Shown: positions 13,619 through 31,342 of the stretch, one piece after another
How the letters are laid out: each line of letters starts with the position of its first letter
How positions within the stretch are numbered: position 1 is the first letter of the stretch
Assembly: GCF_000017305.1 (NCBI RefSeq)
Contig: NC_009806.1
Location: 120,001 to 152,000, forward strand
Reading direction: 5' to 3'
Origin: Kineococcus radiotolerans SRS30216 = ATCC BAA-149
GTDB taxonomy: Bacteria; Actinomycetota; Actinomycetes; Actinomycetales; Kineococcaceae
DNA length: 32,000 bases
Notes under the pieces: model-generated
What the model was told of the DNA's origin: nothing
What the model saw: the letters and a program-made list of their open reading frames with translations, nothing else
The model's database searches: none
Made by a program: the position numbers and the translations under genes

Positions 13619-13625
13619 TGCAGTA

Positions 13626-15264: not shown

Positions 15265-15359
15265 TCAGGGCCGTGAGACGGCGCCCTCACTCAGACCCGA
15301 CGCGGCTTGCGGCTCACATGGCAGCTTGCATGTCCACTGACGCTGTAGCTGAGACGTCG

Positions 15360-15515
15360 GCTCGCACGCAGGCTCGCACGCAGGCTCGCACGCAGGCTCG
15401 CACGCAGGCTCGCATCCCGGCTCGCACGCAGGCTCGCATCCCGGCTCGCATCCCGGCTCGCATCCCGGCTCGCATCCCGGCTCGCACGTCGGCTCGCATC
15501 CCGGCTCGCACGTCG
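15360..15515. repeat. Array 2: 13 contiguous 12-bp units of the same family (ACGCA x5, ATCCC x6, ACGTC x2)
   Basis: Counted directly. Same orientation and same invariant GCTCGC core as array 1. It lies between the parA stop and the next gene start. Confidence 0.97.
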
Positions 15516-15605
15516 GCTCGCCGGTAGTGCCTAGGGTCCCGCTGTTGCGCTGCTGGCGGGCTCGTTCACCTTTCCTCATCCACCTCTGTCAGCACTGGAG
15601 ACGAC

Positions 15606-16508: not shown

Positions 16509-16610
16509 TCGAGCAGCCGCGAGTCCTCACCTGGGCTCGCGGGGCCGGAGGCAACGGCGCATCCGGCCCTGGCGAACTCGGCCACGGCGAGCGAGAGGGG
16601 AGTGGCTTGA

Positions 16611-16634
16611 CCGGTGCAAGCGCTGCTTCACCGG
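16611..16634 (+). terminator. Possible terminator hairpin downstream of 15606-16508
   Basis: CCGGTG-C-AAGC gct GCTT CACCGG: a 10-bp stem with one bulge and no U tract. A weaker hairpin is CCGCGAG-N11-CTCGCGG at 16517-16541. Confidence 0.3.
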
Positions 16635-16876
16635 CGCCACTCCCAGTCGCTCTGACTACCCTCACGGGGTAGCCATTACCCTCCCAAGGTAGTGAAGACC
16701 CCCCATTCGGTGTAATACTCGCCCCCGTCCAGGCCCCGGGGGTGCCCGGTCGAAAGATTCCGGCGTCACCGGTCACACCTGATGGCCTGCCTGCACCTAC
16801 CGCAGTGAGCGGGGATTCCGGAGCAGCCTCCGGTCCAGAGCACGCTCGGCGGGAGGTGGAGAGGTGGAGCACGCAG

Positions 16877-17146
16877 GTGACGACAGGAGCCGCAGTGCTG
16901 CGGAGACCCCGAACGCCGCTGGCTACCCTGACCGCCGTGGTGGAGCCGTCTCGTACCGACTGGTGGCTGCTGGAGGACGTCGCAGTCTTCTTGGGCAGCT
17001 CCAAGAGCACGGTGACCGCCTACCGCTCCCGCGGGCAGCTTCCGGCGGCGGACACGACCTTCGGTCGATCCCCGGCCTGGCGCCCGCAGACGATCCGCGA
17101 TTGGGCTGCGCGCCGGCCCGGGCAGGGCTGGCGCAAGACCACCTGA
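16877..17146 (+). CDS. Excisionase/MerR-type helix-turn-helix DNA-binding protein (Xis-like)
   Basis: WWLLEDVAVFLGSSKSTVTAYRSRGQLPAADTTFGRSPAWRPQTIRDWAARRPGQGW fits the excisionase-family HTH pattern. The start is uncertain: the track ORF begins at 16742, and I prefer GTG 16877 (GGTGGAG 7 nt upstream). Confidence 0.55.
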   Translation: MTTGAAVLRRPRTPLATLTAVVEPSRTDWWLLEDVAVFLGSSKSTVTAYRSRGQLPAADTTFGRSPAWRPQTIRDWAARRPGQGWRKTT

Positions 17147-17199
17147 GCGCTGATCCCCAGCCTCATCCCGTCACGAGCGACTCGAGCGCGGCGCGCGCT

Positions 17200-17229
17200 G
17201 CACGTTACAGCTTTGGAGCTGTAACGTGC
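17200..17229. promoter_or_regulatory. Perfect 13-bp inverted repeat GCACGTTACAGCT-ttgg-AGCTGTAACGTGC (terminator or operator) 60 nt upstream of the Tad operon
   Basis: The arms were verified as exact reverse complements. The sequence is comparatively AT-rich for this DNA. It lies between the Xis-like stop (17146) and the lipoprotein start (17290). Confidence 0.5.
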
Positions 17230-17289
17230 GGAGTGAACACCCGGCGTCACTACCTTGCAGCTGCAGACGACCGATCCAAGGAGGACTCG

Positions 17290-17871
17290 ATGCAGCGCTT
17301 CACCACTTCCCGCCTGGCCGCAGCTTCAGCGGCCGTGGCGGTCCTACTGCTGGCCGGGTGTGGCAACAACGACGACATCGACTTCGGCAGCGACCCGCAG
17401 CAGGGGAGCAGCTCCACCAGCTCCCCGACCCCGAGCGTCGACACCGAGCAGCTCGAGCAGCAGAAGGTCCTGGAGGGCTACAACGCCTACTGGACGACCT
17501 ACGACGCAACGGCGGCACAACCGTCCCCAGACAAGGCGGTAGTCAGCCAGGCCCTGACGCCCGTGGCGGTCGACCCGGCCCTGGACACCTCAGTCAACGA
17601 CATCGTCAACGCCGCGCTGGCCGGCCAGAAGGCCTACGGCAACTACGTCGTGGACCCCAAGACCCCGGTCTTCCAGAACGAGGAGCACACCGAGGCCTTG
17701 GTCACCGACTGCATCGACTCCTCCCAGTCCGGCTGGGAGGACGCCACCACGGGTCAGAAGCTGACCGTCGGGGTGCCGGCCGTCTCCTCCAAGGCCACGT
17801 TGGTCAAGGGCGACGACGGCACCTGGCGGATGTCGCAGGTGACCTTCGACGACACGGTGACCTGCTCGTGA
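17290..17871 (+). CDS. Lipoprotein of unknown function, first gene of the Tad operon
   Basis: AAGGAGGA precedes the ATG at 17290. The signal ends in the lipobox LLLAGC. The track ORF from 16864 was trimmed. Confidence 0.85.
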   Translation: MQRFTTSRLAAASAAVAVLLLAGCGNNDDIDFGSDPQQGSSSTSSPTPSVDTEQLEQQKVLEGYNAYWTTYDATAAQPSPDKAVVSQALTPVAVDPALDTSVNDIVNAALAGQKAYGNYVVDPKTPVFQNEEHTEALVTDCIDSSQSGWEDATTGQKLTVGVPAVSSKATLVKGDDGTWRMSQVTFDDTVTCS

Positions 17872-18800
17872 GCGCCGTGGGACGCCGTCGTGGGCTCACC
17901 GCCGCCGCGGCGCTCGTCAGCACCCTCGTGGTCCTGCCGAGCGCCGTGGCCGACGACGGCGTCCCCCCGGTGGTCGTCAGCAACAGCCACGGTGGCGTGG
18001 GCACCACGGTCCATCAGACGGGCACGCCGGGGGGCTCGGGCAAGGCTGCCAACGGGGCGCAGACCGTGCGTGCTCGAGGTGCAGGCTCGACGTGCTCCTA
18101 CAACGACACCGTGGTGACCAGCACCGGGGGCACCGCGGTGACCCCGGCCGGTGCCGGACGCGCCAACGAGAACGCCGGTACCGGCCTGGTGGGGGACTCC
18201 ACCCAGGGCCGCTTCGTCACCCGCTTCTGCGGCGGGGCCTCCACCGTCATCTGGGTCCCCAACGGCGCTGTCGCTGGACCCGCGGGAGTTCCGACCGTGA
18301 CCCCGGAGATGCTCGCCCAGGACGCGCGCAACCTCCTGCCCATCCCCGTTCCCGCCTACGCCACCAACGGGTGGGGTCCCGGCGCCTCCCTGGTCAACAT
18401 GCCCACCTGGTGGTGGGTGACCAACGCCTCCGGGTCCCTGACCCAACGCACCAGCCTGGGAGCGGTGTGGGCGGAGGTGACCGCGACCCCGCTCACCTCC
18501 ACCTGGACCCCGAACACCCCCACCGACAACCCCGTGACCTGCACCGGCATGGGCATCGCGTGGCGGGACGGCATGAGCGAAGAGCAGGCCGGTCACTGCG
18601 CGGTCACCTACACCACCGCTTCCTTCCGGCGCCTGGCCGGAGCGGACCAGGCCTTCAACTCCCAGCTCAGCGTCACCTGGCGCGTGACATGGGTGGGCTC
18701 CGGCGGCACCGGCGGCACCCTCGCCCCGCTGTCGATGGACGCAGACATCCCCATGCAGGTCTACGAACGCCAGATCCTCAACAAGCCCCCCACTCCTTGA
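17868..18800 (+). CDS. Secreted protein of unknown function (Trp/Thr-rich C-terminal domain)
   Basis: The GTG start overlaps the lipoprotein stop (GTGA). Signal peptide: VSAVGRRRGLTAAAALVSTLVVLPSAVADDG. The track ORF from 17226 was trimmed. Confidence 0.75.
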   Translation: MSAVGRRRGLTAAAALVSTLVVLPSAVADDGVPPVVVSNSHGGVGTTVHQTGTPGGSGKAANGAQTVRARGAGSTCSYNDTVVTSTGGTAVTPAGAGRANENAGTGLVGDSTQGRFVTRFCGGASTVIWVPNGAVAGPAGVPTVTPEMLAQDARNLLPIPVPAYATNGWGPGASLVNMPTWWWVTNASGSLTQRTSLGAVWAEVTATPLTSTWTPNTPTDNPVTCTGMGIAWRDGMSEEQAGHCAVTYTTASFRRLAGADQAFNSQLSVTWRVTWVGSGGTGGTLAPLSMDADIPMQVYERQILNKPPTP

Positions 18801-18873
18801 TCACCCACGGCCGCTGAGCCGCTGACCACGAGCCAGCGACCAGCACCAGACCCACCACCACCAGGAGCTCCTG

Positions 18874-19632
18874 ATGTCCTTGACCAAAGCCGCGCAGAAG
18901 ACGCCCAACGGCACCCCCACCGCGACCGCAGCTGCCCTCAAGGACGCCTCGACGACCCCGACCAAGGGAGCGTCCATCAGGGCCCGCAAGAGCGATGGGA
19001 CCCCGGCACGCTCGCGCCCTCAGACCAAGAGCAGCAGCCAGGCGAAGACGAACCGACCGATGGCCGCGCTCGCGGTTCTGATCATCGTCGGCTCGGCCAC
19101 CGCTGGGGCGGTGCTGTACTCCAGCGCCGGTGACCGTCACGACGTGCTCGCCCTGGCCCGCGACGTGCCCGCCGGACAGAAGATCACCGCGGAGGACCTG
19201 CGGGTCGCTGAGGTCAACGGGTCGGGCTTCTCCGCGGTCATCAAGGAGCACGCCGACCAGGTCGTGGGCTCGACCGCCATCTCGAGCCTGCCCGAAGGGG
19301 CCCTGCTGACGAACAAGATGTACCAGGACGACCCGATCCCCGAACCGGGCAACGTCATCGTGGGGGCTTCGCTGAAGCCGGGTTCGGTGCCCTCGGACGC
19401 GCAGCCCGGGCGTCGGGTGGCCGTCTGGAAGGTCGGCGTCGTCAACGGCAACGCGCCGGTCGCCGACGCCGAGCAGATCGTGGAGTCGGCGCTGGTGACC
19501 GAGGTGTCCACCGACGTCGCCGGCGGCAACACGCTGCTGTCGCTGGACCTGCCCCGCGACAGCGCCGCCGCGTACACCTCCGCCGCGGCCGCGGGCACCG
19601 TGGCCGTCTCGGTGCTGCCGGTGGGCTCCTGA
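18874..19632 (+). CDS. cpaB: CpaB/RcpC-like Flp pilus assembly protein (TM + SAF domain)
   Basis: AGGAG lies 6 nt upstream. TM: MAALAVLIIVGSATAGAVLY. The SAF-like segment is VLALARDVPAGQKITAEDLRVAEV...LPEGALLTNKM. Confidence 0.8.
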   Translation: MSLTKAAQKTPNGTPTATAAALKDASTTPTKGASIRARKSDGTPARSRPQTKSSSQAKTNRPMAALAVLIIVGSATAGAVLYSSAGDRHDVLALARDVPAGQKITAEDLRVAEVNGSGFSAVIKEHADQVVGSTAISSLPEGALLTNKMYQDDPIPEPGNVIVGASLKPGSVPSDAQPGRRVAVWKVGVVNGNAPVADAEQIVESALVTEVSTDVAGGNTLLSLDLPRDSAAAYTSAAAAGTVAVSVLPVGS

Positions 19633-20960
19633 TGGCCCTCATCGTGCTCGGGGCAGCCAAGGGCGCCCCCGGAGTGACCACGACGACCGCCGCCCTGGCC
19701 GCGGTGTGGCCGACCCCCGCGCTCCTCGTCGAAGCCGACCCCAGCGGGTCCGACCTGCAGCTGCTGGCGCGCGGGGACAACGGCCGCCACCTGCAGGGTG
19801 GTCAGCGCGGCGCCGGAGTCCTGGGTCTGGCCAGTCACGGCGGGAACCGCTCCACCCTCCTGAAGGAGCCCATCACCCAGAGCTGCGACCTCGGCGTGCC
19901 CGTGATCATCGGCCCCCCGCACCCGCGGGCCGCGCAGGCGATGGGGCCGGCGTGGAACCAGGTGGGCAACGCTCTGGCTCAGCTCTCCCGCGAAGGCGAG
20001 TTCGACGTCCTGGTCGACATCGGCCGCCTCGACGACGAGAGCGTCGCCCTGCCCCTGATCAGCCGTGCCGACGTCGTGGTGCTGGTGACCCGGCGCAACC
20101 TGCGTGGCATCGCGCACACCCGCCGAGTGGCCGCCATCGTCGAGGAGCAGCTGCGCCTGAACTCCGCCGCCGCTGCTGGCGCCACCCCGCGCCTGCTGAT
20201 CGTCGACGACCTCGACACCCCCAAGCGCGTCGAGACTCAGTGGCCCCTGGCCGCGCGGGGTCTCACCCACTCCTGGTCGATGCTGCCGCCGATCACCTGG
20301 GACGCCGCCGGAGCCCGCGACCTCTTCGACGCCACCGCCGCCCAGCGCGACACCAGCGCCTTCCTCACCTCCGTGCGCACCATCGCCACCGAGCTGCACG
20401 ACATCGCCCGGCACTTCGCCGCCCCCGCCGGCGGCGACGCCGCGCTCGGAGCCGCACCCGAGCTTCCGAGTCAGTCCGTCGCGCCGTCGCCGCAGGCCGT
20501 CACCTCCTCGACGACTTCATCGGGCTCCTCGACTCCTGCGGCCGCCGCGGAAGCGCTGGGCACCACCAAGGACCTGGGTGGGCACCCGGCATCTCCCGAC
20601 ACCGCCGGTCTGAGTCCGCTGCAGGTCGGCGCGGTGGGCCCCCCGGTTCCTGCCGGCGTGGTGTGGCCCCCGCTGCCGCCGTCGCGACGAGGAACGGCTG
20701 CCGGCTCGCACGCCAGCGACTTCGGCACCGACCTGGACGCCAGCCTGGAAGAGCGAGACCCGGCCAAGACCGGTGAGAACCCCGACTCCGCGAGCGCCAC
20801 CGAGGAAGACCCCGACTCCGCGAGCGCCACCGGCCCCAGCACCGACCCCAGCACCGACCCCAGCACCGCCCGCGACGAGGAGACGGCTCCTGATCCGGTG
20901 ACCGTCACGCACCCCCACCGTGATCCGCAGCTGACGAGCTCAGGAGCAGGACAGCGATGA
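19632..20960 (+). CDS. TadZ/CpaE-like ParA/MinD-fold protein with a degenerate Walker A, plus a repeat-rich acidic Pro/Ser/Thr tail
   Basis: IVLGAAKGAPGVTTTTAALA occupies the position of KGGxGKT/S, with no Lys after the second Gly. DVLVDIGRLDD is Walker-B-like. It sits between cpaB and tadA. Its ATG overlaps the cpaB stop by 1 nt. Confidence 0.65.
   Translation: MALIVLGAAKGAPGVTTTTAALAAVWPTPALLVEADPSGSDLQLLARGDNGRHLQGGQRGAGVLGLASHGGNRSTLLKEPITQSCDLGVPVIIGPPHPRAAQAMGPAWNQVGNALAQLSREGEFDVLVDIGRLDDESVALPLISRADVVVLVTRRNLRGIAHTRRVAAIVEEQLRLNSAAAAGATPRLLIVDDLDTPKRVETQWPLAARGLTHSWSMLPPITWDAAGARDLFDATAAQRDTSAFLTSVRTIATELHDIARHFAAPAGGDAALGAAPELPSQSVAPSPQAVTSSTTSSGSSTPAAAAEALGTTKDLGGHPASPDTAGLSPLQVGAVGPPVPAGVVWPPLPPSRRGTAAGSHASDFGTDLDASLEERDPAKTGENPDSASATEEDPDSASATGPSTDPSTDPSTARDEETAPDPVTVTHPHRDPQLTSSGAGQR
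20779..20869. repeat. In-frame repeats in the TadZ-like tail: a 24-mer ACCCCGACTCCGCGAGCGCCACCG twice at 30-bp period, then CCCCAGCACCGA x3
   Basis: Copies at 20779-20802 and 20809-20832, and the 12-bp units at 20834-20869. They encode PDSASAT x2 and PSTD x3. Confidence 0.9.
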
Positions 20961-22315
20961 CTCTTCAACCCCTCACCTCTGGCATCGAGCAGCTGCCCGA
21001 CACCTCCCAGGTCGTCGACTTCGCCCTGGTGCAGCGTCTGCGGACGACGGTGGCGGCCGGCCTGAACGCCGAGCGCCGGCGGCGAGCCGACGACGAACAG
21101 CTGCGGGAGATGACCAGCCAGGACGAGCTGCTCTTCGCTGACTCCCTGATCACCCGCAGCATTGCGGCGGAGAAGCAGGACCAGATGCAGCTCGGGCACC
21201 GCCTGACCGGGGAGGATGAGCTGCGCGCGGCCCTGCGCGCAGCGATCTTCGGTCTGGGCCGACTGCAGCCGCTGGTGGACAACCCCGCGCTCAGCGACAT
21301 CGCCATCAACGGCTGCGACCAGGTCTGGGTCAAGACCCTCAGCGGGCAGAAGCTGCGCGGTCCGGCCGTCGCGGAGTCCGATGAGGAACTCATCCAGTGG
21401 GTTCGTGACACCGCGACCTACAACGGGTTGTCGTCTCGTCCCTTCGACCCGGCCAACCCCTACCTGCAGATGCGCCTGCCCGGCAACCACCGCCTCACCG
21501 CACAGATGTCGACCTCGGAACGTCCGGTGGTCTCGATCCGCCTCTACCGACTGCAGTCGGTGCGCATGCACGAGCTGCACGCCCGGGGGATGTTCACCGA
21601 CCGCATCGGCGCTTTCCTGCACGCCGCGGTACGCGCCAAGAAGGCGATCATGCTGGTGGGGGAGACCGGCTCGGGCAAGACCACGCTGCTGCGGGCGCTG
21701 GCCAACGAGATCCCGGCCCGCGAGCGCATCATCACCATCGAGCACTTCCTGGAGCTGGGGTTGCCCCCCGAGCTGCACCCGGACCTGGTCGCCTTCGAGG
21801 AGCGACCCGCCAACGCCGAGGGCCTCGGCGCGGTGACCATGGAGGACCTGGTCATGAACTCCCGGCGCATGGACCCCGATCGGGTCATCCTCGGGGAGTG
21901 CATTGGGCCTGAGGTGGTCGCGCTGCTGGACTCCATCACCCAGGGCAACGCCGGGGGACTGTCCACGATCCACGCCCCCACCGCCCACGCGGCCATCGAC
22001 AAGATCGCCCTCTACGCGGTCAAGGCGCCCACGCCGCTGACGATGGAGGCGGCCAACATGCTGACCTCCATCGGGTTGGATCTGCTGGTCTTGGTGAAGA
22101 AGACCGAGCTGCCCGACGGCACCGTCCGTCGTCACGTCGCCAGCATCGTCGAGGTCGGCAAGTACGACGGGCAGCAGGTCATCACCAACGAGCTCTTCAG
22201 AGCGCCGACCGGCGCGGTGCAGGCCCTGCCCAAGGCCGCGCTGTCGGACGAGCTTCGCGAGAGCCTGAAGGCTGCCGGCTACGACGACAAGCAGTGGGCG
22301 CAGGACGCGCGATGA
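20957..22315 (+). CDS. tadA: TadA/CpaF pilus assembly secretion ATPase
   Basis: 452 aa. Walker A: VGETGSGKTTLLRAL. Typical CpaF stretches: RIITIEHFLEL, DRVILGECIGPE, GGLSTIHA. ATGA overlap with the upstream gene. Confidence 0.95.
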   Translation: MTLQPLTSGIEQLPDTSQVVDFALVQRLRTTVAAGLNAERRRRADDEQLREMTSQDELLFADSLITRSIAAEKQDQMQLGHRLTGEDELRAALRAAIFGLGRLQPLVDNPALSDIAINGCDQVWVKTLSGQKLRGPAVAESDEELIQWVRDTATYNGLSSRPFDPANPYLQMRLPGNHRLTAQMSTSERPVVSIRLYRLQSVRMHELHARGMFTDRIGAFLHAAVRAKKAIMLVGETGSGKTTLLRALANEIPARERIITIEHFLELGLPPELHPDLVAFEERPANAEGLGAVTMEDLVMNSRRMDPDRVILGECIGPEVVALLDSITQGNAGGLSTIHAPTAHAAIDKIALYAVKAPTPLTMEAANMLTSIGLDLLVLVKKTELPDGTVRRHVASIVEVGKYDGQQVITNELFRAPTGAVQALPKAALSDELRESLKAAGYDDKQWAQDAR

Positions 22316-23358
22316 TCGACCAGACCTTCCTGCTGGTCACCCTCGCCGGTCTCGTCTTCGGGTTGGGTGTCGTCCTGCTCGTGCTGGCCCTGCGCGGTCA
22401 GGGCGCCGGCGTTCGCCCACCGCGGGCCTTGCAGCTGGGTCATTGGCCGCGCGAGACCAGGATCCGCTGGGGCGTGGCGGTGGCCGGGGGGCTGCTGACC
22501 CTGCTGATCACCCGGTGGATCACCGTGGCGCTGGCCATCGCCGTGATCGCGGTGATGTGGCCGCGTCTGTTCGGCGGCGCGCGCAGTCAGGCTCGCCAGA
22601 TCCGCAAGCTGGAGGCGCTGGCCAGTTGGGTGGAGTCGTTGCGCGACACCATCAGCACCGGGCAGGCACTGCCGGAGGCCCTGCCGGCCAGCGCACTGAC
22701 CGCGGCCCCTGAGATCGCCGAGCCGCTGGCGAACCTGTTGGACCGCATGCGCGCGCGCCAGTCCCTGGACCAGGCGCTGCTGCTGCTGGCCGATGACCTC
22801 GACGATCCTGAGGCGGACAGCGTCATCGGCGCGTTGGCCATGAACGCACGGGTGCAGGGCAAGCGGCTCAACGTGGTGCTGACGTCGCTGGCGGAGTCGG
22901 CGCGCAAGCAGCTGACCATCCGCCGTGAGATCGAGGCCGGGCGGGCGAGCATGCGCCGCGGGGTGACGTTCGTGATCATCACCACCTGCACGCTGGTCAT
23001 CGGCATGACGGTCTTCAACCGCGACTACGTCGAGCCGTACTCCACCGTCACCGGTCAGATCGTCTTGGCCATCGTCATCGGGCTGTTCACCGCCGGCTTG
23101 TTCTGGCTGCGGCGCCTAGCCGACTTCGAGACCCGGCGCCGGTTCCTGGTGACACCCCAGACCACCTCGCAGGCGGCGGCTCAGTCCCTCCAGCCCGTCC
23201 CGTCGGCTCAGTCCGGGGAGCGAGCTGACGTGCGGGGCGCAGGCGAGGTCGACGTGGCCTCGTCCTTGGACCTGCCTTCGGCGCCGACGCTGGCTCCCGC
23301 CGGGGTCACCTCTGCCCCGACCTCCGCCTCGACCTCTGCCTCCGGAGGGACCCGATGA
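22312..23358 (+). CDS. tadB: TadB-like T2SS-F family inner-membrane platform protein
   Basis: ATG 22312 overlaps the tadA stop (ATGA). It has N- and C-terminal TM helices and a central cytoplasmic helical domain typical of the family, plus a low-complexity C-terminal tail. Confidence 0.8.
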   Translation: MIDQTFLLVTLAGLVFGLGVVLLVLALRGQGAGVRPPRALQLGHWPRETRIRWGVAVAGGLLTLLITRWITVALAIAVIAVMWPRLFGGARSQARQIRKLEALASWVESLRDTISTGQALPEALPASALTAAPEIAEPLANLLDRMRARQSLDQALLLLADDLDDPEADSVIGALAMNARVQGKRLNVVLTSLAESARKQLTIRREIEAGRASMRRGVTFVIITTCTLVIGMTVFNRDYVEPYSTVTGQIVLAIVIGLFTAGLFWLRRLADFETRRRFLVTPQTTSQAAAQSLQPVPSAQSGERADVRGAGEVDVASSLDLPSAPTLAPAGVTSAPTSASTSASGGTR

Positions 23359-24272
23359 CCGCGATGGTGCTGGTGGCCATGCTGCTGGCGGCGGGTCTGC
23401 TGCTGCTGGTGCGCGCGCTGCGTCCCTCCCAGCCTTCCCTCGGTGAGCAGCTGGCCCGCTTGGGCGCGCAGACCAGCTACGACGAGCGGTACCGGGCCGC
23501 GGCCAGCACCGCACGCTCGCACACCTCCAAGGCCCACCGGTGGCTGGCCCGGCGCCTGGCCGGCACCCCGGTCATGACCAGCACCATCGACGACAAGCTC
23601 AGCCGCGACCTGTCCCTGCTCAACGTCGACGCCGCCGCGTTCACCGCAACCCGAGTGGCCATGGTCGCGGCCGGGTTCCTCCTCGCTCCGGTCCTCTGCT
23701 TCATCGCCTTGGCCGTCACCGGTGGAAGCACTCCCGCGGTGGTGGTCCTGACCGTGACGTTGCTCGTGACGTTGGTGGCCTACGTGGTGCCGGCCCGGCG
23801 GGTGCACAGCACCGCGGAGTCGCGGCGCGCAGACTTCCGCGCCGCCATCACCTCCTACATGGACTTGGTGGCCATGCGCGCCGCGTCTGGGGCCGGCGCC
23901 TCCGAAGCCCTCGCCGACGCAGCGCGCATCGGACGCGGATGGCCTTTCGCGCGCGTCCGCCTGGCCCTGGCCGATGCGCGCATCAGCGGCTACACCCCTG
24001 CCCGCGCGCTGGGACGGCTGGGAGAAGAGATCGGCATGCACGAGCTGCAGGACCTCTCCGCGCAACTGCTGCTGGCCGACGCGACCGGCGCGCAGGCCGA
24101 GGTGACCTTGCGCGAGCGCGCTCGGTCGTTGCGCGATGCCCAGCTGGCGGTAGCCCAGGGCAAGGCCGGTGAACGCAGCCAGACGATGGTCATCGCGCAG
24201 CTGCTGCTGGCGTTGGGGTTCATGCTCTTCGTCCTCTACCCGCCGGTCTCGAACTTCATGACGGCGCTGTGA
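23355..24272 (+). CDS. tadC: TadC-like T2SS-F family inner-membrane platform protein
   Basis: ATGA overlap with tadB. Architecture is the same as TadB (TM, helical domain, C-terminal TM pair MVIAQLLLALGFMLFVLYPPV). Confidence 0.8.
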   Translation: MTAMVLVAMLLAAGLLLLVRALRPSQPSLGEQLARLGAQTSYDERYRAAASTARSHTSKAHRWLARRLAGTPVMTSTIDDKLSRDLSLLNVDAAAFTATRVAMVAAGFLLAPVLCFIALAVTGGSTPAVVVLTVTLLVTLVAYVVPARRVHSTAESRRADFRAAITSYMDLVAMRAASGAGASEALADAARIGRGWPFARVRLALADARISGYTPARALGRLGEEIGMHELQDLSAQLLLADATGAQAEVTLRERARSLRDAQLAVAQGKAGERSQTMVIAQLLLALGFMLFVLYPPVSNFMTAL

Positions 24273-24541
24273 TGAACCCGCCCACCAGGTCATCGACCAG
24301 GCAGCTGGCTAGGCCCCCGACCACGACACGACACGAACCCCGGCGTGCGCCCCGGTTCGTGCTCCGGTCCAGACCATCCCGTACGGGGCGCCAACCGCCA
24401 TCCCGGTCTCGACATCAACTCGGCGTTGTCCACAGCCTCGGCTGCGGCGATGGCCGTGATGACCACCTCGGTGATCTGCTCACGGAAGAGCCCCCAGTCC
24501 ACACCAGCCGCTCCCGCCGCACCGCATCCTCGGAGGAACCC

Positions 24542-24904
24542 ATGTCCAGCACCGTCCTCGACGCAACCTCGAGCACCAGCGCTGAGCTCACCACCGGCTC
24601 CGCCAGCGACTTCGCCACCGTCATCCGCTCCACGGGTTCCTCGGTGCCGACCCAGCGCATGACCCCGGCCGCGCGCGCGGTCCAGATGGCCCACCGGCTC
24701 ACCTTCCACCTGCCGGCGCTGATCGTCGTCGCCGCCGTGATGAGCCGCCTCGTGCAGGCTCCGCAGGAGCAGGACCAGGAGGAAGGCTTCTCAGTCGCGG
24801 AGTGGGTCATCGGTGTCGCCATCATCGCCGCGCTCGCCATCGCCGTCGGCGCCTTGATCACCACCAAGGTCACCGACAAGGCCAGCAGCATCAACCTGGG
24901 CTGA
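24542..24904 (+). CDS. flp: Flp-family pilin with an unusually long N-terminal extension
   Basis: The C-terminus EEG/FSVAEWVIGVAIIAALAIAVGALITTKV matches the Flp G/XXXXE[YW] processing motif followed by a hydrophobic helix. GGAGGA lies 5 nt before ATG 24542, and GC3 is high throughout 24542-24740. An alternative short start is ATG 24740. Confidence 0.7.
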   Translation: MSSTVLDATSSTSAELTTGSASDFATVIRSTGSSVPTQRMTPAARAVQMAHRLTFHLPALIVVAAVMSRLVQAPQEQDQEEGFSVAEWVIGVAIIAALAIAVGALITTKVTDKASSINLG

Positions 24905-24911
24905 GCTGCAG

Positions 24912-24939
24912 CCGTCGGGTGCCGAACGGCACCCGACGG
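24912..24939 (+). terminator. Perfect 12-bp stem / GAAC loop hairpin 8 nt after the flp stop (terminator or attenuator)
   Basis: CCGTCGGGTGCC gaac GGCACCCGACGG, verified as exact complements. There is no U tract, which is common in actinobacteria. Confidence 0.65.
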
Positions 24940-24963
24940 TCCCGTCCCGCCCCCGGATCCGAC

Positions 24964-25491
24964 ATGAAGGACGTCTCCATGTTCAGCACCTTGCACGCGA
25001 CGCGGCAGCGGTTGCGTTCGACCGCGCCGCGGTCGAAGGCCGCGCCGGCGGCCGTGTCGGCGAGCAGGGCCGAGCAGGACACGGAACGCCAGCCGGGGGA
25101 GGGCCGGGATCAGACCAAGGGTGAGGAGGGCTCCACCGCGGTGGAGCTGGTGATCCTGACCCCGCTGATGTTCCTGCTGGTGCTGCTGATCGTGCAGTTC
25201 GCTCTCTTCCTCCACGCTCGCCAGGTCGTCACCGCGGCCGCGGAGCAGGGTGTGCGCAGCGAGCGGTTGTCTCGAGCCGGTGGGGGAGAAGGTGCCCAGA
25301 CCGCGCTCGCGTTCGCGGCCCGTGTCGGCGGCAAGGCGGTGACCGGGGTCAATGCTCGGGTCGCGCGCGGGGCAGACGCGGTGACGGTCAACGTCAGCGG
25401 GGAAGGTCAGTCGATCATCCCGTGGATGCACCTGACGGTCACCGGGACCAGCAGTGGCTCGATCGACCAGTGGACCGGGGACGTGTCGTGA
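24964..25491 (+). CDS. tadE: TadE-like pseudopilin
   Basis: GSTAVELVILTPLMFLLVLLIVQFALFLHARQVVTAAAEQGVR is a classic TadE N-terminal domain. The start may instead be ATG 24979 (AAGGA 7 nt upstream). Confidence 0.85.
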   Translation: MKDVSMFSTLHATRQRLRSTAPRSKAAPAAVSASRAEQDTERQPGEGRDQTKGEEGSTAVELVILTPLMFLLVLLIVQFALFLHARQVVTAAAEQGVRSERLSRAGGGEGAQTALAFAARVGGKAVTGVNARVARGADAVTVNVSGEGQSIIPWMHLTVTGTSSGSIDQWTGDVS

Positions 25492-26018
25492 GCGACTTCC
25501 AGACGCGGTCTCACACGCAGACCCAGACACCGGCTCAGACGTCGGCCCAAGCGCATGCACGGGTCGGTGCCCTGGCGACCGCGCGGCGGGTGCTGAGTCC
25601 TCAAGGCCGATCCGAGGAGGGGGCGGGAATGATCGACCTCGTCGTCGTCACGCCCATCCTGGTGTCCATCCTGTTGCTGGCCGTGGGCCTGGGGCGGGTC
25701 CGCAACGCTGACCAGCTCGTGCGCTCGGCCGCGGAGGACGCTGCACGCGCAGCTTCCCTGCAGCGCACCGTCGCCGGCGCTCAGGCCGCGGCCGCCGACA
25801 CGGTGAGCAGCTCGCTGCAGTCCGCTCAGACGTCGTGCACCGGCGGGCCGGCGGTCTCCGTCGACATCAGCCGGTGGCGACCGGGAGGTTCGGTCAGCGT
25901 GACGGTCAGCTGCACCGCAGCCTTGTCGGACCTGACCGCTCCGGGACTGCCGGGCAGCAAGACGATGAGCGCGCGCGGAACCTCGCCCATCGACACCCGC
26001 CGGTCGGTCGCGACGTGA
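25488..26018 (+). CDS. Second TadE/TadF-like pseudopilin
   Basis: GTGA overlap with tadE. GAGMIDLVVVTPILVSILLLAVGLGRVRNADQLVRSAAEDAARAAS has the TadE-like layout. Confidence 0.7.
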   Translation: MSDFQTRSHTQTQTPAQTSAQAHARVGALATARRVLSPQGRSEEGAGMIDLVVVTPILVSILLLAVGLGRVRNADQLVRSAAEDAARAASLQRTVAGAQAAAADTVSSSLQSAQTSCTGGPAVSVDISRWRPGGSVSVTVSCTAALSDLTAPGLPGSKTMSARGTSPIDTRRSVAT

Positions 26019-26575
26019 ACCGCTGGCCATCGCCCTGGGCCGCGGCCAACAGCGTGAGTGCTGGTGCGCATCGTCTCGACGTCGTTGAGGTCATTGATGG
26101 CCCTGCCGTTCCTGCCGTCCCCGCTGGCCCCGCTGTCCCCGCCTCGAGGGCAGGTGCGGGGGAGGAGGGCTCGGCACTGGTGTGGGTGGTGCTGTGCCTG
26201 CCGATGCTCTTCGCCCTGCTCGGCCTGATCTTCGACGGCGGAGCGGCTATCGCTGGGGCTCAGCAGGCCGACAACGTCGCCGACCAAGCCGCTCGCGCCG
26301 GCGCGGACCAGCTCGACGTCAGCGCGGCGCGCTCGGAGCAGGCGTTGTTCGGTGGCGCCGACACCGCTCGGGCGTCGCGGGCGGCCTGCGAGTACGTGAG
26401 CGTCGCTCTACCGGGGGCGAGCTGCACGGTCACAGCCAACGCCGACACCGTCACCGTGGCCGTCGCCGCCACCGTCCCGGCGCAGTTCTTCGGGGTCATC
26501 GGCATCCACCAGCTGAGCATCGACGGCAGTGGGTCTGCCGACAGCCACACCGGTATCGACGAGGAGGTTCAGTGA
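26015..26575 (+). CDS. TadG-like pilus assembly protein
   Basis: GTGA overlap with the upstream gene. GSALVWVVLCLPMLFALLGLIFDGGAAIAGAQQADNVADQAARAGA matches the TadG/TadE-G-like N-terminal pattern. Confidence 0.7.
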   Translation: MNRWPSPWAAANSVSAGAHRLDVVEVIDGPAVPAVPAGPAVPASRAGAGEEGSALVWVVLCLPMLFALLGLIFDGGAAIAGAQQADNVADQAARAGADQLDVSAARSEQALFGGADTARASRAACEYVSVALPGASCTVTANADTVTVAVAATVPAQFFGVIGIHQLSIDGSGSADSHTGIDEEVQ

Positions 26576-29500
26576 TGAAGCAGGTCCGCGCAGTCCTGGC
26601 GGGGGTGGCACTGCTGGCTCTCGTCGCCGGCGTGCCGGTGCTGCTGCTCCACTTCGTCGGCAACCCGCTGCCGGCGTCGGTGCCGGACGTGTCGATGCTG
26701 CTGAACACGCAGGTCGACTCCACCTTCGTGATCAACACCTTCGCCGTCGTCGTGTGGTTGGCGTGGCTCAACTTCCTGGGATGCGTCCTGGTCGAGGCGA
26801 GCTCGGTCATCGGTGAACTGCGCGGGCGCCCCCGCGTCGGAGTGAGCATCCCGCTGAACTTCGGCGGGCAGCACGTCGCTCGCCGGCTGGTCATCACGGC
26901 GGTGGCGGGCATCGTCGGGGTCTCCGCACTGGGACCGACCGCGGCCATGGCCGCCACGCACACCACGACGACCTCTAGCGTCAGCGCGGTCAGCGCGGTA
27001 GGTACGGGGTCGCTGGGAGCGGTGACCACCGAGGCCTCCACATCGCCTGGCGGCGGTGCCGCGGCCTTGGCCGAGGTGGGTGCTCCGAGCGTGGATCCCG
27101 CCTCGCTGGGCGCTCCTGCTCAAGCCGCGCCGGGCGAGGCAGGAACGGCGCCTGCTGCCTCCTCGGTGCTTCCCACCTACGAGGTGAAGGGCAGTCCCGG
27201 CAACCACGACAACCTGTGGGACATCGCCGAGGTCCACCTGGGTGACCCGTTGCGCTGGCACGAGATCTGGGACCTCAACCACAACCACGTCATGAGCGAT
27301 GGGGACCGCTTCGAGCATCCCGAGATGATCCGGCCCGGGTGGGTCTTGAGCATGCCCGCCGACGCGGTGGACCTGCCCAGCATGACCGCCGCAGCTCCCA
27401 TGCCCGCGGTGTCAGCTCCTGACACCGGTGCAGGTGAGCAGGGCGGCCCCGCCACGCAGGAGTCTCCGTCCGCAGCAGATCAGGGCGCCGGCACCAGCAC
27501 GGGCGCGGACGCGGACGGGAACGGAGGAGCGGGGGCCACGAGGGCTTCGCAGGTCCCCTCGAGCCCCGCAGCTCAGCCCGCTCCGGCAGCCCCCAGCGCC
27601 TCGGCTCCGGCAGCCCCTTCCGCCTCTACCCCCTCACCCGCGACCTCCAGCAGCTCCGAGAGGGCAGCGGCCACGACGAGCTCCGCTCGTGATGCTGCTG
27701 CCAGCGATACCGCGGATGACGCGGTGGTCGACATGCGCACCGTCGGGGGGATCGGGCTGCTGCTGGCCTCCGGCCTGCTGGGCGCGGTGGCTCTGCGTCG
27801 ACGCCGGCGCGAAGTCCGGCGCCGGGCGGGGTTCCGCGCTCGCGCACCGCACGCGGCCGCGGCCGCGATGGAGACCGAGCTGCTGAGCCTGCACACGCCC
27901 ATGTCACTGGACCTCATCGACCGCGGTCTGCGCCGCCTGTCGGCCGACTTGGCCGAACAGGAGCAGCCCCTGCCGGGGATCGCCACCGCACGCCTGAACG
28001 GCGAAGGGTTGCTGCTCAGCCTCTTCGAGGCAGCAGAGCTACCCGCTCCCTGGGAGCAGGTGGACGACGAGGGGTTCGAGTGGCTGCTCAGCGGCGCGGC
28101 CGCGGCGGAGTCCGACGACGACATCGACGCTCGCGTGCCCGCACCGTGGCCGAGCCTGGTGACCCTCGGCTACGACGTCGACGACGCGCACCTGCTCGTC
28201 GACCTCGAGGAGCTGCTGGCTCTGAACATCGCCGCCGCCGACGAACAGCAGAGCCAGGCCATGCTCAACGCGTTGGCCCTGGAGCTGGCTACCACGCCGT
28301 GGGGCGCTGGCCTGCAGGTGACGCTGGTGGGCTGCTGCGAGGACCTGGCCGGTCTCGTTCCCGAGCGCATGCGCTACCTGCCGGATCTGCCGTCGCTGAC
28401 GCGCGAGCTGCAGCTGCGACGCAACGACGTGGCGCGGGTACTGGCGGAATCGGGTCTGGACGACGTCGCGCAGGCTCGCCAGGAGGTGGAGGCCGGCGAC
28501 GTGTGGTCGCCGCACATCATCCTGGTCGGTCACCCGCTGGACGCTGATGAGCAGGCAGCCATCGGCGAGCTGCTCAACGACCTGCCCCGGGTGGGCATCG
28601 CCGCAGTGACCACCGACACGGAGGGACTGGGGGAGTGGGGCCTGAGCGTCGACGTCACCGACCCCGCGTGGGCGGAGCTGACGCCGACCCGCACCCGACT
28701 GCGACCGCAGACGCTGGGCGGTGAGGACTACGACCTGGTCCTGCAGATGCTCGACTCCGCCGAGCAGGAGGCCAGCGAACCCGTCGAGTACGCCTTCGCC
28801 ACGCCCAGCACCGAACCCCACCTGCTGGGCAGCATCCCCGCCGTCATCGACCTCACCTCCTGGGACGAGGAAGAGGGGCCTGTCGCCGCTGGTCAGTACA
28901 CCGCCGCAGCGTCGGCCATGACCAGCTCGACGACCAACTCCACGACCAGCCCCGCTGCCGACGTCCTCGGCGAGGTCAGCGATGCCCACCCGGGCAACGG
29001 CTTCACCGGTGGCCAGGCGGCCGGTGGTGTCTTCGAGAGTGCGAGCGGTGACACGAACGGCGACCCGAGCGCGCACCGGGACTCGGACCTGAGCGGTGCC
29101 GCCACGGTGAACCGCGCGCCGGCACACGGGGCCGACCTCGAGGGCGACGCGGAAGCCTGCGAGGCAGCCGCGAACGTGCGCGCAGCTCAGCTGCTGCGTG
29201 AGGCCGGTTTCGATGAGCAGATGCCGCTGGTGCGGGTCCTGGGGCCGGTGGACGTCCAGCGCGATGGCCAGACCATGGAGCTGACCGGGCGGCGTCTGGC
29301 GCTGGGGGTCTACCTCGCCTTGAACCCCGGTGTGGGTTCGCGAGAGCTCATCGACGACTTCTTCCGTCAACGGACTGCTCCCACCACCCTGCACCCGCGC
29401 GTCACCGAACTGCGCAAGGCCTTGGGAACCCACCCTCACACCGGAGAGCAGCTGGTGCCCTTGAACTCCGACGCCGCGGGGTACCGACTCCACGAGTCGG

Positions 29501-29949
29501 TCCTCACCGACTGGGACCTGCTGCAGCGCCTGGCGGCCAGCGACGACATCGACATGCTGGAGGCCGCCCTGAGCCTGGTGCGTGGTGTGCCGTTCGCACG
29601 GGTCGGCAGCCGCGTCACGCGCTACTACGTCTGGACCGAACGCGTGGAGGGTGAGATCCGGCAGCTGGTGACCGACATCGCCGTGACCGTGGCCGTCCGC
29701 GCTCACGAGGCCGGGCAGTTCCAGCGAGCCGAGCGTGCAGCCGCGAAGGGGCTGCTTCTCGAGCCTGGACACGAGCAGCTGCGGCGAGTGCACTGGCTCG
29801 CTCTGGCGGCGCTGAACAAGCGAGAGGCGCTGCGTCACAGCGTGGAAGAGCTGACGCAGGTCAATGAGGAGCTCGGATGCGATGAGGACCCCGACACGGT
29901 GACCCTCATCGATCAGCTGCGCGCTCAGGGCGCGCTGCAGGCCGCGTGA
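26575..29949 (+). CDS. Large membrane protein: 3 TM, extracytoplasmic LysM, 4th TM, cytoplasmic central domain, C-terminal SARP-type winged helix + BTAD
   Basis: GAGGAGG lies 7 nt before ATG 26575. LysM-like: TYEVKGSPGNHDNLWDIAEVHLGDPLRWHEIWDLNHNHV...IRPGWVLSMP. TM4 GGIGLLLASGLLGAVAL is followed by RRRRRE. SARP-like: VRVLGPVDVQRDGQTMELTGRRLALGVYLAL...AGYRL...DWDLL, then a BTAD-like helical repeat. The track ORF from 26182 was trimmed. Confidence 0.8.
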   Translation: MKQVRAVLAGVALLALVAGVPVLLLHFVGNPLPASVPDVSMLLNTQVDSTFVINTFAVVVWLAWLNFLGCVLVEASSVIGELRGRPRVGVSIPLNFGGQHVARRLVITAVAGIVGVSALGPTAAMAATHTTTTSSVSAVSAVGTGSLGAVTTEASTSPGGGAAALAEVGAPSVDPASLGAPAQAAPGEAGTAPAASSVLPTYEVKGSPGNHDNLWDIAEVHLGDPLRWHEIWDLNHNHVMSDGDRFEHPEMIRPGWVLSMPADAVDLPSMTAAAPMPAVSAPDTGAGEQGGPATQESPSAADQGAGTSTGADADGNGGAGATRASQVPSSPAAQPAPAAPSASAPAAPSASTPSPATSSSSERAAATTSSARDAAASDTADDAVVDMRTVGGIGLLLASGLLGAVALRRRRREVRRRAGFRARAPHAAAAAMETELLSLHTPMSLDLIDRGLRRLSADLAEQEQPLPGIATARLNGEGLLLSLFEAAELPAPWEQVDDEGFEWLLSGAAAAESDDDIDARVPAPWPSLVTLGYDVDDAHLLVDLEELLALNIAAADEQQSQAMLNALALELATTPWGAGLQVTLVGCCEDLAGLVPERMRYLPDLPSLTRELQLRRNDVARVLAESGLDDVAQARQEVEAGDVWSPHIILVGHPLDADEQAAIGELLNDLPRVGIAAVTTDTEGLGEWGLSVDVTDPAWAELTPTRTRLRPQTLGGEDYDLVLQMLDSAEQEASEPVEYAFATPSTEPHLLGSIPAVIDLTSWDEEEGPVAAGQYTAAASAMTSSTTNSTTSPAADVLGEVSDAHPGNGFTGGQAAGGVFESASGDTNGDPSAHRDSDLSGAATVNRAPAHGADLEGDAEACEAAANVRAAQLLREAGFDEQMPLVRVLGPVDVQRDGQTMELTGRRLALGVYLALNPGVGSRELIDDFFRQRTAPTTLHPRVTELRKALGTHPHTGEQLVPLNSDAAGYRLHESVLTDWDLLQRLAASDDIDMLEAALSLVRGVPFARVGSRVTRYYVWTERVEGEIRQLVTDIAVTVAVRAHEAGQFQRAERAAAKGLLLEPGHEQLRRVHWLALAALNKREALRHSVEELTQVNEELGCDEDPDTVTLIDQLRAQGALQAA

Positions 29950-30896
29950 TGACCACTGCAGCGCTGGTGGCGCTTCCTCTCTACGCGACGCTCACACCGG
30001 CCCTGACTTCGTCGGTCGGGGGAGTGGGCCTGCTCGTGGGGGTGGCCGCAGCCGCTGCGGTGCTCGCCGGCGCCGCTCAGCCGTGGCTTGGACACCGCGC
30101 CGGCCTCCTCGGTCGACCTCACCGCGCAGGCGCGGCCGCGGTGACCGGGCTGCTGACCCTGCTGAGCTGCCTGGCGGTGGGCCAGCTCCGCCCGGCACTG
30201 CTGGCGACCGCGCTGACTGCAGCAGTCACCTACCCCCTCTTCACCGTCGATCTGAAGCAGAAGCGTCTACCGATCGCCCTGGTCCGCCCGGTCACAGGGT
30301 GGGTGCTGGTGACCCTCAGCCTCGACGCGCTGCTGATCGACGGCGGCGGGCGACGGATGGCGACGGCACTCGCGGGCGCGGTCGCGGGTGCAGTGGTCTT
30401 CCACGGCCTGCGGGTGATCTCCCGCGGGGGGATGGGCCGGGGGGACGTCCGCCTGGCCAGCCTCCTGGGTCTGCTCCTGGGGTGGTTGTCCCCGGCGACG
30501 GCGCTGCTGGGGTTGGCGTTGAGCTTCGTGCTGGCGGCCGCGGCCCTGGTGCCCTTCCTGCTCACCCACCGCCTCCAGCGACACACGAAGGTGCCGTTCG
30601 GCCCGTTCATGCTTGTGGGCGCGTGGACCGCGGTGGGGCTGCACGCCGTGGCATTTCTGTCGGCGTCGGGAGTGAGCTCGAGCTTCTCGCGCGCCACCGG
30701 CGTGATCGAGACCCTTTCCGCCTGGGCAGGCCCTGCTCTGCTGCTGACCGCACTCGCTGTGGCGGTGTGGACGACAAGGGAGGTGGCTCAGCGTGCCGGG
30801 GGCCTAGGCCCGGTGGTGTACCCGCAGCCGATGACGGCGACCGCGCCCGGCGTCGTGGTCAGAGAGGACGGTTGGCCGTGGCGCTCCTCTCGATGA
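29946..30896 (+). CDS. tadV: A24-family prepilin peptidase (TadV/CpaA-like)
   Basis: Multi-TM protein. Candidate catalytic Asp motifs are FTVDLKQKRLP and GGMGRGDVRL, with C-terminal VPFGPFMLVGAW. GTG 29946 or ATG 29949 overlaps the upstream stop. Confidence 0.85.
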   Translation: MMTTAALVALPLYATLTPALTSSVGGVGLLVGVAAAAAVLAGAAQPWLGHRAGLLGRPHRAGAAAVTGLLTLLSCLAVGQLRPALLATALTAAVTYPLFTVDLKQKRLPIALVRPVTGWVLVTLSLDALLIDGGGRRMATALAGAVAGAVVFHGLRVISRGGMGRGDVRLASLLGLLLGWLSPATALLGLALSFVLAAAALVPFLLTHRLQRHTKVPFGPFMLVGAWTAVGLHAVAFLSASGVSSSFSRATGVIETLSAWAGPALLLTALAVAVWTTREVAQRAGGLGPVVYPQPMTATAPGVVVREDGWPWRSSR

Positions 30897-30961
30897 CTTC
30901 GGGCTGGCTCCTCGAGCAGGCACCTGCACGCGATGTAGCCGCTACCCCGGCGACCCCAACG

Positions 30962-31057
30962 GCTCGCACGCAGGCTCGCACGCAGGCTCGCACGCAGGCT
31001 CGCACGCAGGCTCGCACGCAGGCTCGCACGCAGGCTCGCACGCAGGCTCGCACGCAG
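30962..31057. repeat. Array 3: 8 perfect units GCTCGCACGCAG plus one degenerate unit
   Basis: Counted directly. Same orientation as arrays 1 and 2. It starts 65 nt after the tadV stop. Confidence 0.97.
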
Positions 31058-31342
31058 GCTCGCGACGGCGCGATGCTGGAGCCCTTGAGGGAGTGGCGGC
31101 CGCACCACCACCTGGGCGCTGTCTCGGCCGAACCGCGGGCGAAGTGGTTGACTGTGTCCTCAACGCGACGTCACGCCCGCCGACCAGGCCAGCGACAGGT
31201 CAGGCGCGAAATCTTCTGCTGCGTCCTGTCACATGGGCGCTTGTGCAGGCACCTACCTGGACGTGAAGACCTACAGCCTCCGCCCTCCAGCTTCACCGCG
31301 CCCTGGATCCTCGCCGCGCCGGCGCCTCCAGCGTCATCCGTC

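Follow-up and report, generated by a model that had tools for sequence, protein, structure and literature searches.

Here, we describe a linear plasmid of Kineococcus radiotolerans SRS30216 (= ATCC BAA-149) on which an operon for a Tad/Flp pilus stands beside the operon of a Gram-positive type IV secretion system (T4SS), and we propose, with modest confidence, that the pilus would serve as an element-encoded contact organelle for conjugation. The analysed stretch of DNA, here called the window, comprises 32,000 nt (NC_009806.1, positions 120,001-152,000, plus strand); the Tad region under study extends from position 17290 to 30896 of the window, to which all coordinates refer. Gene comparisons identify the Tad operon as a conserved backbone component of a linear conjugative-type plasmid, belonging neither to the host chromosome nor to the variable cargo. 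How cell contact is established in T4SS-dependent conjugation of Gram-positive bacteria is little understood, most of all in Actinobacteria; the known models invoke adhesins, and to our knowledge no conjugative pilus has been described for these systems. Our proposal builds on the deeply conserved linkage of Tad and T4SS despite cargo turnover, on the occurrence of Tad beside two conjugation gene sets, and on the precedents of IncI plasmids, PAPI-1 and pRAW.

The window is almost certainly part of the linear plasmid pKRAD01 (182,572 bp; CP000751; PMC2587704), for which pili and secretion are both unmentioned in the genome paper (PMC2587704). Its G+C content is about 71% along the whole length, and no tRNA genes were found across the window, leaving no obvious integration site; the match to pKRAD01 and the lack of tRNA genes together indicate that the element is a plasmid carrying both machines. 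Open reading frames (ORFs) were called by third-position GC and cross-checked against gene calls made independently for a public contig of identical sequence (L003), and gene families were assigned by Pfam and NCBIfam scans of the window ORFs. Where related loci have to be told apart, L053 denotes Kineococcus sp. SYSU DK003 (JBJLSI010000022.1), L054 a metagenomic contig of 105.7 kb, L062 plasmid pREL1, L063 plasmid pAL1, L072 plasmid pFiD188, L073 a Gordonia plasmid, and L067-L069 three Tad loci with a TadA about 50% identical to that of the window.

The Tad operon consists of 13 co-directional genes on the plus strand, whose junctions mostly overlap by 1-4 bases, with agreement between our ORF calling and the L003 gene calls. 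As predicted from its genes, it is complete for a secretin-less Tad/Flp (type IVc) pilus system of the monoderm type. A full 13-gene Tad/Flp operon had been proposed in a first-pass annotation made from the DNA letters alone, and the ORF calls, the L003 gene calls and the family matches all support it. The genes are as follows.

17290-17871, plus strand: Tad gene 1, a lipoprotein of 193 aa (lipobox LLAGC; 76% identical in L054, 29-32% in L067-L069)
17868-18800, plus strand: Tad gene 2, a secreted 310-aa protein without family match (homologues beside CpaB in most of 45 genome loci)
18874-19632, plus strand: CpaB/RcpC-like SAF-domain protein (PF08666, E 2e-11)
19632-20960, plus strand: TadZ/CpaE-like (Ssd-type) protein of 442 aa with a long disordered tail (weak TIGR03815 match and conserved position)
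20957-22315, plus strand: TadA/CpaF ATPase (PF00437, E 1.2e-27; 97 bits, cut-off 24.9)
22312-23358, plus strand: TadB platform protein (PF00482, E 1.4e-4; 28-45% identical to annotated T2SSF genes)
23355-24272, plus strand: TadC platform protein (PF00482, E 7.4e-5)
24542-24904, plus strand: Flp-type prepilin (by motif and position; true start probably later, e.g., 24689)
24979-25491, plus strand: TadE pseudopilin 1 (PF07811, E 2.2e-13)
25629-26018, plus strand: TadE pseudopilin 2 (PF07811, E 2.9e-7)
26180-26575, plus strand: TadG-like (Tad/TadE-G) protein (PF13400, E 1.8e-9)
26575-29949, plus strand: membrane protein of 1124 aa, LysM...BTAD family (LysM matched weakly, E 0.076; positional homologues 28-33% identical)
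29946-30896, plus strand: predicted TadV-type A24 prepilin peptidase (PF01478, Peptidase_A24, E 1.5e-7)

Several of these assignments draw on position as well as on family matches. The TadZ-like protein matched TIGR03815 (actinobacterial CpaE/Ssd) at E 4.6e-6 and 26 bits against a cut-off of 154 and no other family, and its Pimelobacter homologue is annotated as ParA family. TadB and TadC scored 22-23 bits against PF00482, slightly below the cut-off of 25.2 bits, and genes annotated as T2SSF stand at the equivalent positions with 28-45% identity. The Flp candidate carries the cleavage motif QEEG|FSVAEW followed by a hydrophobic helix (QEEG|FSVAEWVIGVAIIAALAIAVGALI); a Pfam Flp match is absent, and the assignment rests on motif and position. 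Its positional equivalents in 12 related loci carry ERG|xxxxE/Q, and tblastn matches of 51-67% identity were obtained in L005-L011 and L032. The Flp prepilins of the window and of L067-L069 have unusually long leaders of 50-70 residues, with a second hydrophobic stretch before the G|xxxxE/Q site. Proteins related to the 310-aa protein accompany Tad loci widely in actinobacteria. At the position of the 1124-aa protein, the homologues contain LysM (E down to 6e-13) and/or BTAD (E ~1e-6) domains, and by comparison the 1124-aa protein is a conserved late gene of plasmid Tad loci. We also considered TadA as the VirB11 of the T4SS and rejected this assignment, because TadB, TadC, pilins and a peptidase accompany it.

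The minus strand encodes a Gram-positive T4SS, for which Pfam and NCBIfam returned TcpC, VirB4/AAA_10, a CD3337/EF1877-like membrane protein and a hydrolase with NlpC/P60 and SLT domains. Its genes, in coordinate order, are the following.

590-1192, minus strand: g01, conserved T4SS-operon gene without Pfam match (homologues 67-72% identical at the same position in L054 and L056)
1259-2209, minus strand: g02, conserved T4SS-operon gene (homologues 40-65% identical, downstream of the hydrolase in L053, L054, L056, L057 and L059)
2446-3681, minus strand: cell-wall hydrolase with NlpC/P60 and SLT domains and a VirB1-like role (PF00877, E 6.8e-23; PF13406, E 8e-6)
3685-6018, minus strand: polytopic VirB6-like membrane protein (CD3337/EF1877 mobilome family, sub-threshold: NF046089, E 2.9e-10, 39.5 bits against a cut-off of 120)
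6015-9101, minus strand: VirB4-like ATPase (PF12846, AAA_10, E 1e-33)
9110-10000, minus strand: g06, conserved T4SS gene (homologues 31-70% identical upstream of VirB4 in relatives)
9997-10311, minus strand: small T4SS gene, 104 aa (gene call on the identical contig L052; small ORF at the equivalent position in all relatives)
10355-11704, minus strand: TcpC/VirB8-like protein (PF12642, E 1.8e-8)
11698-12306, minus strand: first gene of the T4SS operon, 202 aa (gene call on L052; 35% identical homologue in L054)

Syntenic homologues of the VirB6-like membrane protein follow VirB4 in all relatives. Within g06, a near-perfect 12-bp coding repeat of 10.6 units (9228-9354; CCGGTGAGGGGC on the plus strand) would encode a four-residue repeat about ten times. 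Neither a coupling protein nor a relaxase was found within the 32-kb window. In relatives, an FtsK/SpoIIIE-type protein is encoded two to three genes past the hydrolase, and the equivalent in pKRAD01 would fall just left of the window. The first-pass annotation had placed the system in the mating-pair formation (MPF) class FATA; by its markers (TcpC, NlpC/P60 and, in relatives, an FtsK/TcpA-type coupling protein) it looks at least as much like Tn916/pCW3 (MPF-FA), whose marker set is described in PMC4027160. Since both classes are pilus-less, this leaves the argument about the pilus unaffected.

To survey the linkage of the two operons, TadA and VirB4 were searched against PLSDB by tblastn, and the fetched regions were compared with all proteins of the window. 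VirB4 homologues were found on 463 PLSDB plasmids, and both queries recovered the same actinobacterial plasmids. At least 22 elements from more than 12 genera (a number that includes overlaps of the tblastn lists) carry both Tad and the window-type T4SS, often in divergent orientation; the TadA search saturates on Gram-negative VirB11/CpaF, and the count is a lower bound. VirB4 and TadA homologues often co-travel, a point that the first-pass annotation had proposed to check. In the shared layout, a homologue of the window gene g10, which encodes a sigma-like protein, separates two arms. To one side run TcpC, VirB4, the membrane protein, the hydrolase and the coupling protein, and to the other ParA, followed by SAF, TadZ, TadA, TadB, TadC, Flp, two TadE, TadG, the LysM protein and the peptidase. 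This order was found on pAP13 (Brevibacterium), pC1c (Curtobacterium), pCSL1 (Clavibacter), Microbacterium plasmid B and a Micrococcus luteus plasmid, five plasmids with 25-41% protein identity to the window and unrelated cargo. The block of T4SS, par and Tad genes makes up about two thirds of the 54.5-kb pC1c. The T4SS and Tad operons of Haloactinopolyspora alba diverge with the g10 homologue alone between them, while on pREL1, a Nonomuraea plasmid and a Kitasatospora plasmid the two lie in tandem or at a distance of 13-17 kb, and looser pairings occur in Arthrobacter, Rhodococcus, Kitasatospora, Nonomuraea and others. On pAL1, the T4SS/g10 block and the ParA-Tad block are separated by the insertion of a complete BREX type 1 defence system (L063, 28164-40958).

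PLSDB and the GTDB genome set gave no close match to the window: a megablast search of PLSDB with 20 kb of it gave nothing relevant, the sole match being 51 bp from Azospirillum, and a TadA scan of the GTDB genome set gave no close relative, with a top identity of 43%. The closest VirB4 on a long contig was that of L054 (74% identical), which has the same centre, 75-79% identity in the first three Tad genes and 84% in TadA. The next tier of TadA relatives, at about 50% identity, is formed by L067-L069, which share the Tad gene order; these loci are preceded by a TrwC relaxase and a DnaB-like gene and followed by DUF6112, two genes of membrane-protein size and ArdC (L067, 18413-21461; L068, 18437-21407; L069, 19444-21437). 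Judged from these flanks, the 12-gene Tad module is also carried by conjugative elements of a second type. The nearest TadA relatives, at 84% and about 50% identity, thus all stand in conjugative contexts, and a chromosomal CpaF of Kineococcus xinjiangensis is only 46% identical to the window TadA. Both observations argue for a Tad operon that moves together with the element and against one of the chromosomal core. The first-pass annotation had suggested such travel, with conservation in the chromosomal core as the finding that would speak against it; the former is supported and the latter contradicted by these TadA identities.

In the mechanism that we consider the likeliest, TadV would process both the Flp prepilin and the pseudopilins TadE/G by cleavage at G|xxxxE, and TadA, TadB, TadC, the TadZ-like protein and CpaB would polymerise a thin filament, which the LysM/BTAD protein and the lipoprotein may anchor or guide through the thick wall. 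This filament would capture or hold recipient cells, upon which the pilus-less T4SS would form the mating junction; the type IV thin pilus of IncI plasmids would be its analogue. Transfer is known for plasmids of the kind described here, namely pAO1 (PMC10494377) and the plasmids of Cutibacterium acnes, and pAO1 transfers at 1e-3 to 1e-2 per donor (PMC10494377).

A number of observations weigh against a role in conjugation. No experiment is known to tie any actinobacterial Tad locus to conjugation. The functions known for Tad pili of Gram-positive bacteria are adhesion, in Bifidobacterium according to work cited in PMC5696575, and DNA uptake, in M. luteus, where the genes for Flp pilus biogenesis are required for transformation (PMC4322843; discussed in PMC5696575). 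Among the relatives of the window, Kineococcus sp. SYSU DK003 (VirB4 69% identical) and K. rhizosphaerae (54%) lack Tad within 10 kb, and pFiD188 and the Gordonia plasmid lack it within 20 kb, so that the T4SS can persist without an adjacent Tad operon; judged from these elements, Tad may be dispensable for this T4SS family. Nor is the Tad machine intrinsically conjugative: of 45 Tad loci at greater distance, with TadA no more than 43% identical, about 38 are situated on large contigs and have no conjugation gene within 10 kb. The window TadA is, among linked loci, nearest to that of Kitasatospora (45%), whose VirB4 is the most distant (27%); this shows that modules have been exchanged and have not strictly descended together. 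In favour of the linkage, the distances of VirB4 and TadA do correlate over the linked loci (Mantel r 0.46-0.65, p 0.013-0.0001), a correlation confounded by host phylogeny. The Mycobacterium plasmids with this VirB4 family, 57 of which were among the VirB4 matches, carry ESX instead. As far as gene neighbourhoods can tell, Tad is therefore a frequent, repeatedly recruited but non-universal partner of this T4SS.

Other genes were noticed near this T4SS in related elements. In SYSU DK003, the par genes are followed not by Tad but by the gene of a Ricin-B-lectin protein of 1007 aa (L053, 1-1052), possibly an alternative surface adhesin. In mycolic-acid bacteria, a cutinase-family gene adjoins the same T4SS, on pREL1 (L062, 18118-20118), pFiD188 (L072, 14798-16228) and the Gordonia plasmid (L073, 28684-30708); two of these three elements have no nearby Tad.

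The best-surviving alternative, which we nevertheless regard as rather unlikely, is that the Tad operon is a host-benefit module for adhesion, colonisation or biofilm formation, a long-term plasmid cargo without a direct role in mating-pair formation, and that its linkage with the T4SS reflects backbone hitch-hiking or an indirect benefit such as denser communities aiding plasmid spread. Tad pili are adhesins in most bacteria studied, the tad locus of the C. acnes plasmids has been discussed as an adhesion or virulence factor, with a plasmid pseudopilin found on the cell surface (PMC5696575), and both the chromosomal location of most distant homologous Tad loci, away from conjugation genes, and the sister T4SS elements without Tad would fit this explanation. 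However, cargo is normally replaced quickly, whereas the pairing, and frequently the precise arrangement of genes, has been kept across orders at 25-45% identity with wholly different cargo on either side. The share of about two thirds that the T4SS-par-Tad block takes of pC1c, and the recurrence of Tad beside a second, unrelated conjugation set (TrwC, DUF6112, ArdC), also speak against cargo.

A stronger version of a conjugative function, to which we give a low probability, is that Tad is an obligatory structural partner of the minimal VirB4/TcpC/FtsK-type T4SS, the two forming a chimeric conjugation apparatus that would be switched on by the ECF-like sigma factor of the plasmid (extracytoplasmic function, ECF). 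Such an apparatus would parallel PAPI-1 (VirB4 and coupling protein with a type IV pilus) and pRAW (T4SS with ESX). If true, it would be the first conjugative pilus of monoderm bacteria and a widespread actinobacterial transfer system missing from current T4SS classifications; a review of T4SSs from December 2025 lists hybrids with type IV pili and with ESX and never mentions Tad (PMC12857230).

We consider it very improbable that the pilus is a DNA-uptake (competence) device that would confer transformability on the host or serve DNA uptake by the recipient. The requirement for Flp biogenesis genes in the transformation of M. luteus is the precedent for such a function, against which stand that no genes of the comEA, comEC or dprA type were found among the window ORFs scanned with Pfam and NCBIfam, that a conjugative element would profit little from a host taking up foreign DNA, and that the conserved partner of Tad is a T4SS and not a set of competence genes. 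Finally, although chromosomal Tad loci that share the core gene order are present in many actinobacteria, a Tad operon of the Kineococcus chromosomal core beside an integrated T4SS element can be dismissed for practical purposes, given the match of the window to the linear pKRAD01, its lack of tRNA genes, the parA gene and repeat arrays between the two operons, and a TadA whose nearest relatives are element-linked while a Kineococcus chromosomal CpaF reaches just 46% identity.

Expression of the Tad operon may be controlled by the plasmid and coordinated with that of the T4SS, and the region between the two operons contains candidates for such control. The first-pass annotation had described a central module of about 5 kb from which the T4SS and Tad operons diverge and had seen the arrays of parA bracket the Tad operon as well; our analysis supports both, with a module of 4.9 kb (12358-17289) separating the two operons and a third array after tadV containing the unit GGCTCGCACGCA. 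The features of the module, together with this third array, are listed below.

12599-13618, plus strand: g10, divergent ECF-like sigma factor of 339 aa at the T4SS/Tad divergence point
13626-14113, no strand: 12-bp array 1, about 41 units of GGCTCGC plus 5 variable bases, upstream of parA
14134-15264, plus strand: ParA partition ATPase, start codon uncertain (PF13614, E 1.7e-21; PF01656, E 4.9e-12)
15354-15521, no strand: 12-bp array 2, 14 units of the same GGCTCGC family
16176-16508, plus strand: small conserved gene after parA, 110 aa, a possible centromere-binding partner (L003 gene call; C-terminal part 38-59% identical in L053 and L054)
16895-17146, plus strand: predicted HTH_17 DNA-binding protein just upstream of the Tad operon (PF12728, E 1e-4, sub-threshold; 66% identical in L054)
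17202-17227, no strand: palindrome ACGTTACAGCT-TTGG-AGCTGTAACGT with perfect 11-bp arms in the Tad leader, between the HTH_17 gene and the first Tad gene
30961-31063, no strand: 12-bp array 3, close behind tadV, with 8.6 perfect GGCTCGCACGCA units

The product of g10 is 100% identical to a K. radiotolerans protein named RNA polymerase sigma factor/sigma-24 by NCBI and UniRef, and a profile built from ten g10 homologues matched region 4 of Mycobacterium tuberculosis SigL (E 0.001). The AlphaFold model is of low confidence (predicted local distance difference test, pLDDT, 56), and the Foldseek matches were enriched in sigma factors, with none of them significant. Homologues of g10 were found in L050, L053, L054, L056, L057, L060, L062, L063 and L072, and in most relatives (Microbacterium, Rhodococcus, Arthrobacter, Haloactinopolyspora and Kineococcus elements) the gene is kept at the divergence point. 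It looks like a divergent ECF-type sigma factor and is a candidate master regulator for transfer. Positions 12358-12598, which separate g10 from the T4SS operon, hold several direct and inverted copies of CTTGCC(G/A)/CGGCAAGG.

The palindrome in the Tad leader is retained in L054 as ACGTTACAGCC..GATGTAACGT, with two arm changes, and so is the ribosome-binding region. It is a candidate operator, and together with the adjacent HTH_17 gene it suggests that expression of the Tad operon could be under plasmid control. A scan of positions 12300-18900 for sigma-70 promoters and intrinsic terminators gave no match; the single loose match to an ECF-type promoter upstream of the first Tad gene overlaps the palindrome and was not relied on.

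The three arrays have the unit GGCTCGCACGCA in common, in which an invariant GGCTCGC is combined with 5 variable bases; elsewhere on the plus strand of the window there are only 9 copies of GGCTCGC. The array sequences are not conserved in the relatives examined, among which K. rhizosphaerae alone has a different 12-bp array of 8 units beside parA. The arrays are probably centromere sites or binding sites of a regulator. Public short-read (Logan) contigs of matching proteins end at them. They recall the situation on Arthrobacter plasmids, for which Mihasan and Brandsch (2016) are said to have described conserved DNA repeats along with a predicted T4SS.

Taken together, one T4SS family has a full Tad operon as a stable partner in the plasmid backbone across many actinobacterial genera, on plasmids that carry catabolic, resistance and virulence traits, and in mycobacteria this T4SS family demonstrably depends on a second machine, ESX. 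Should the pilus aid transfer, this would account for the spread of such plasmids on skin and in soil, would enlarge the T4SS repertoire by a new hybrid, and would offer a target for blocking transfer, e.g., of C. acnes resistance plasmids. If it plays no part in transfer, the persistent linkage requires another explanation.

The arrangement of Tad and T4SS genes has been reported before, in descriptive form only. Davidsson et al. (2017) found tad and VirB4/TcpC/FtsK-like genes on C. acnes plasmids and explicitly raised the question of a functional link (PMC5696575), and pili and T4SS ORFs occur together in a conserved region of Micrococcus linear plasmids (PMC11707576). The statement of the first-pass annotation that a Tad-T4SS coupling was not known to be characterised therefore holds for the functional link, which PMC5696575 left open, and not for the pairing itself. 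The C. acnes linear plasmids p15.1.R1, pIMPLE-HL096PA1 and p09-9 (with pTZC1 of the same kind), compared here by description, resemble the window in having a tad locus beside a VirB4/TcpC/FtsK-like conjugation locus and are transferable, but they belong to Propionibacteriales with a human-skin host. The backbone order of the window is shared by pAP13, pC1c, pCSL1, the Microbacterium sp. No. 7 plasmids, the Micrococcus pLMA1/pLMA7-type plasmids and pAL1. Unlike the window, these Micrococcales plasmids lack the lipoprotein and the 310-aa gene ahead of CpaB and have weak homologues after the pseudopilins instead; long 12-bp arrays were not detected in them, and the window TadA comes from another lineage.

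On Arthrobacter pTC1, as in the window, ParA is followed by lipoprotein and hypothetical genes and then by a Tad locus with a LysM protein, and the pAO1/pTC1 group has tandem DNA repeats 5' of backbone genes (PMC10494377, PMC6305408). The transfer genes after the Tad locus of pTC1 are, however, of another type (MPF_T and MOBF by MOB-suite), and the window-type TcpC and VirB4 are absent from the stretch fetched. The chromosomal tad loci of M. luteus likewise represent a secretin-less actinobacterial Tad system with an Flp pilin, but they are needed for DNA uptake (PMC4322843) and are not linked to a T4SS.

The closest functional parallels come from elements that combine a T4SS with a second machine. 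IncI plasmids and PAPI-1 have, like the window, a type IV filament locus on a conjugative element beside a separate T4SS, here with both in one 32-kb stretch. The thin pilus of IncI plasmids (R64, TP114) improves mating in liquid or in the gut (PMC12857230), and the type IV pilus of PAPI-1 is essential for transfer (PMC9045228). These are type IVb pili of diderm Proteobacteria with PilV adhesins and a shufflon, whereas the window encodes a predicted Tad (type IVc) system of a monoderm, and Pfam scans of its ORFs turned up neither PilV-like nor shufflon genes. The mycobacterial plasmids of the pRAW type share with the window the VirB4/TcpC T4SS family and the presence of a second envelope machine on the plasmid, and conjugation of pRAW requires both the T4SS-like locus and ESX-P1 (PMC4173767). 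No ESX-type domains were found in any window ORF scanned; where pRAW has a type VII secretion system (ESX) as partner of its T4SS, the Kineococcus plasmid has a Tad pilus operon in the partner position.

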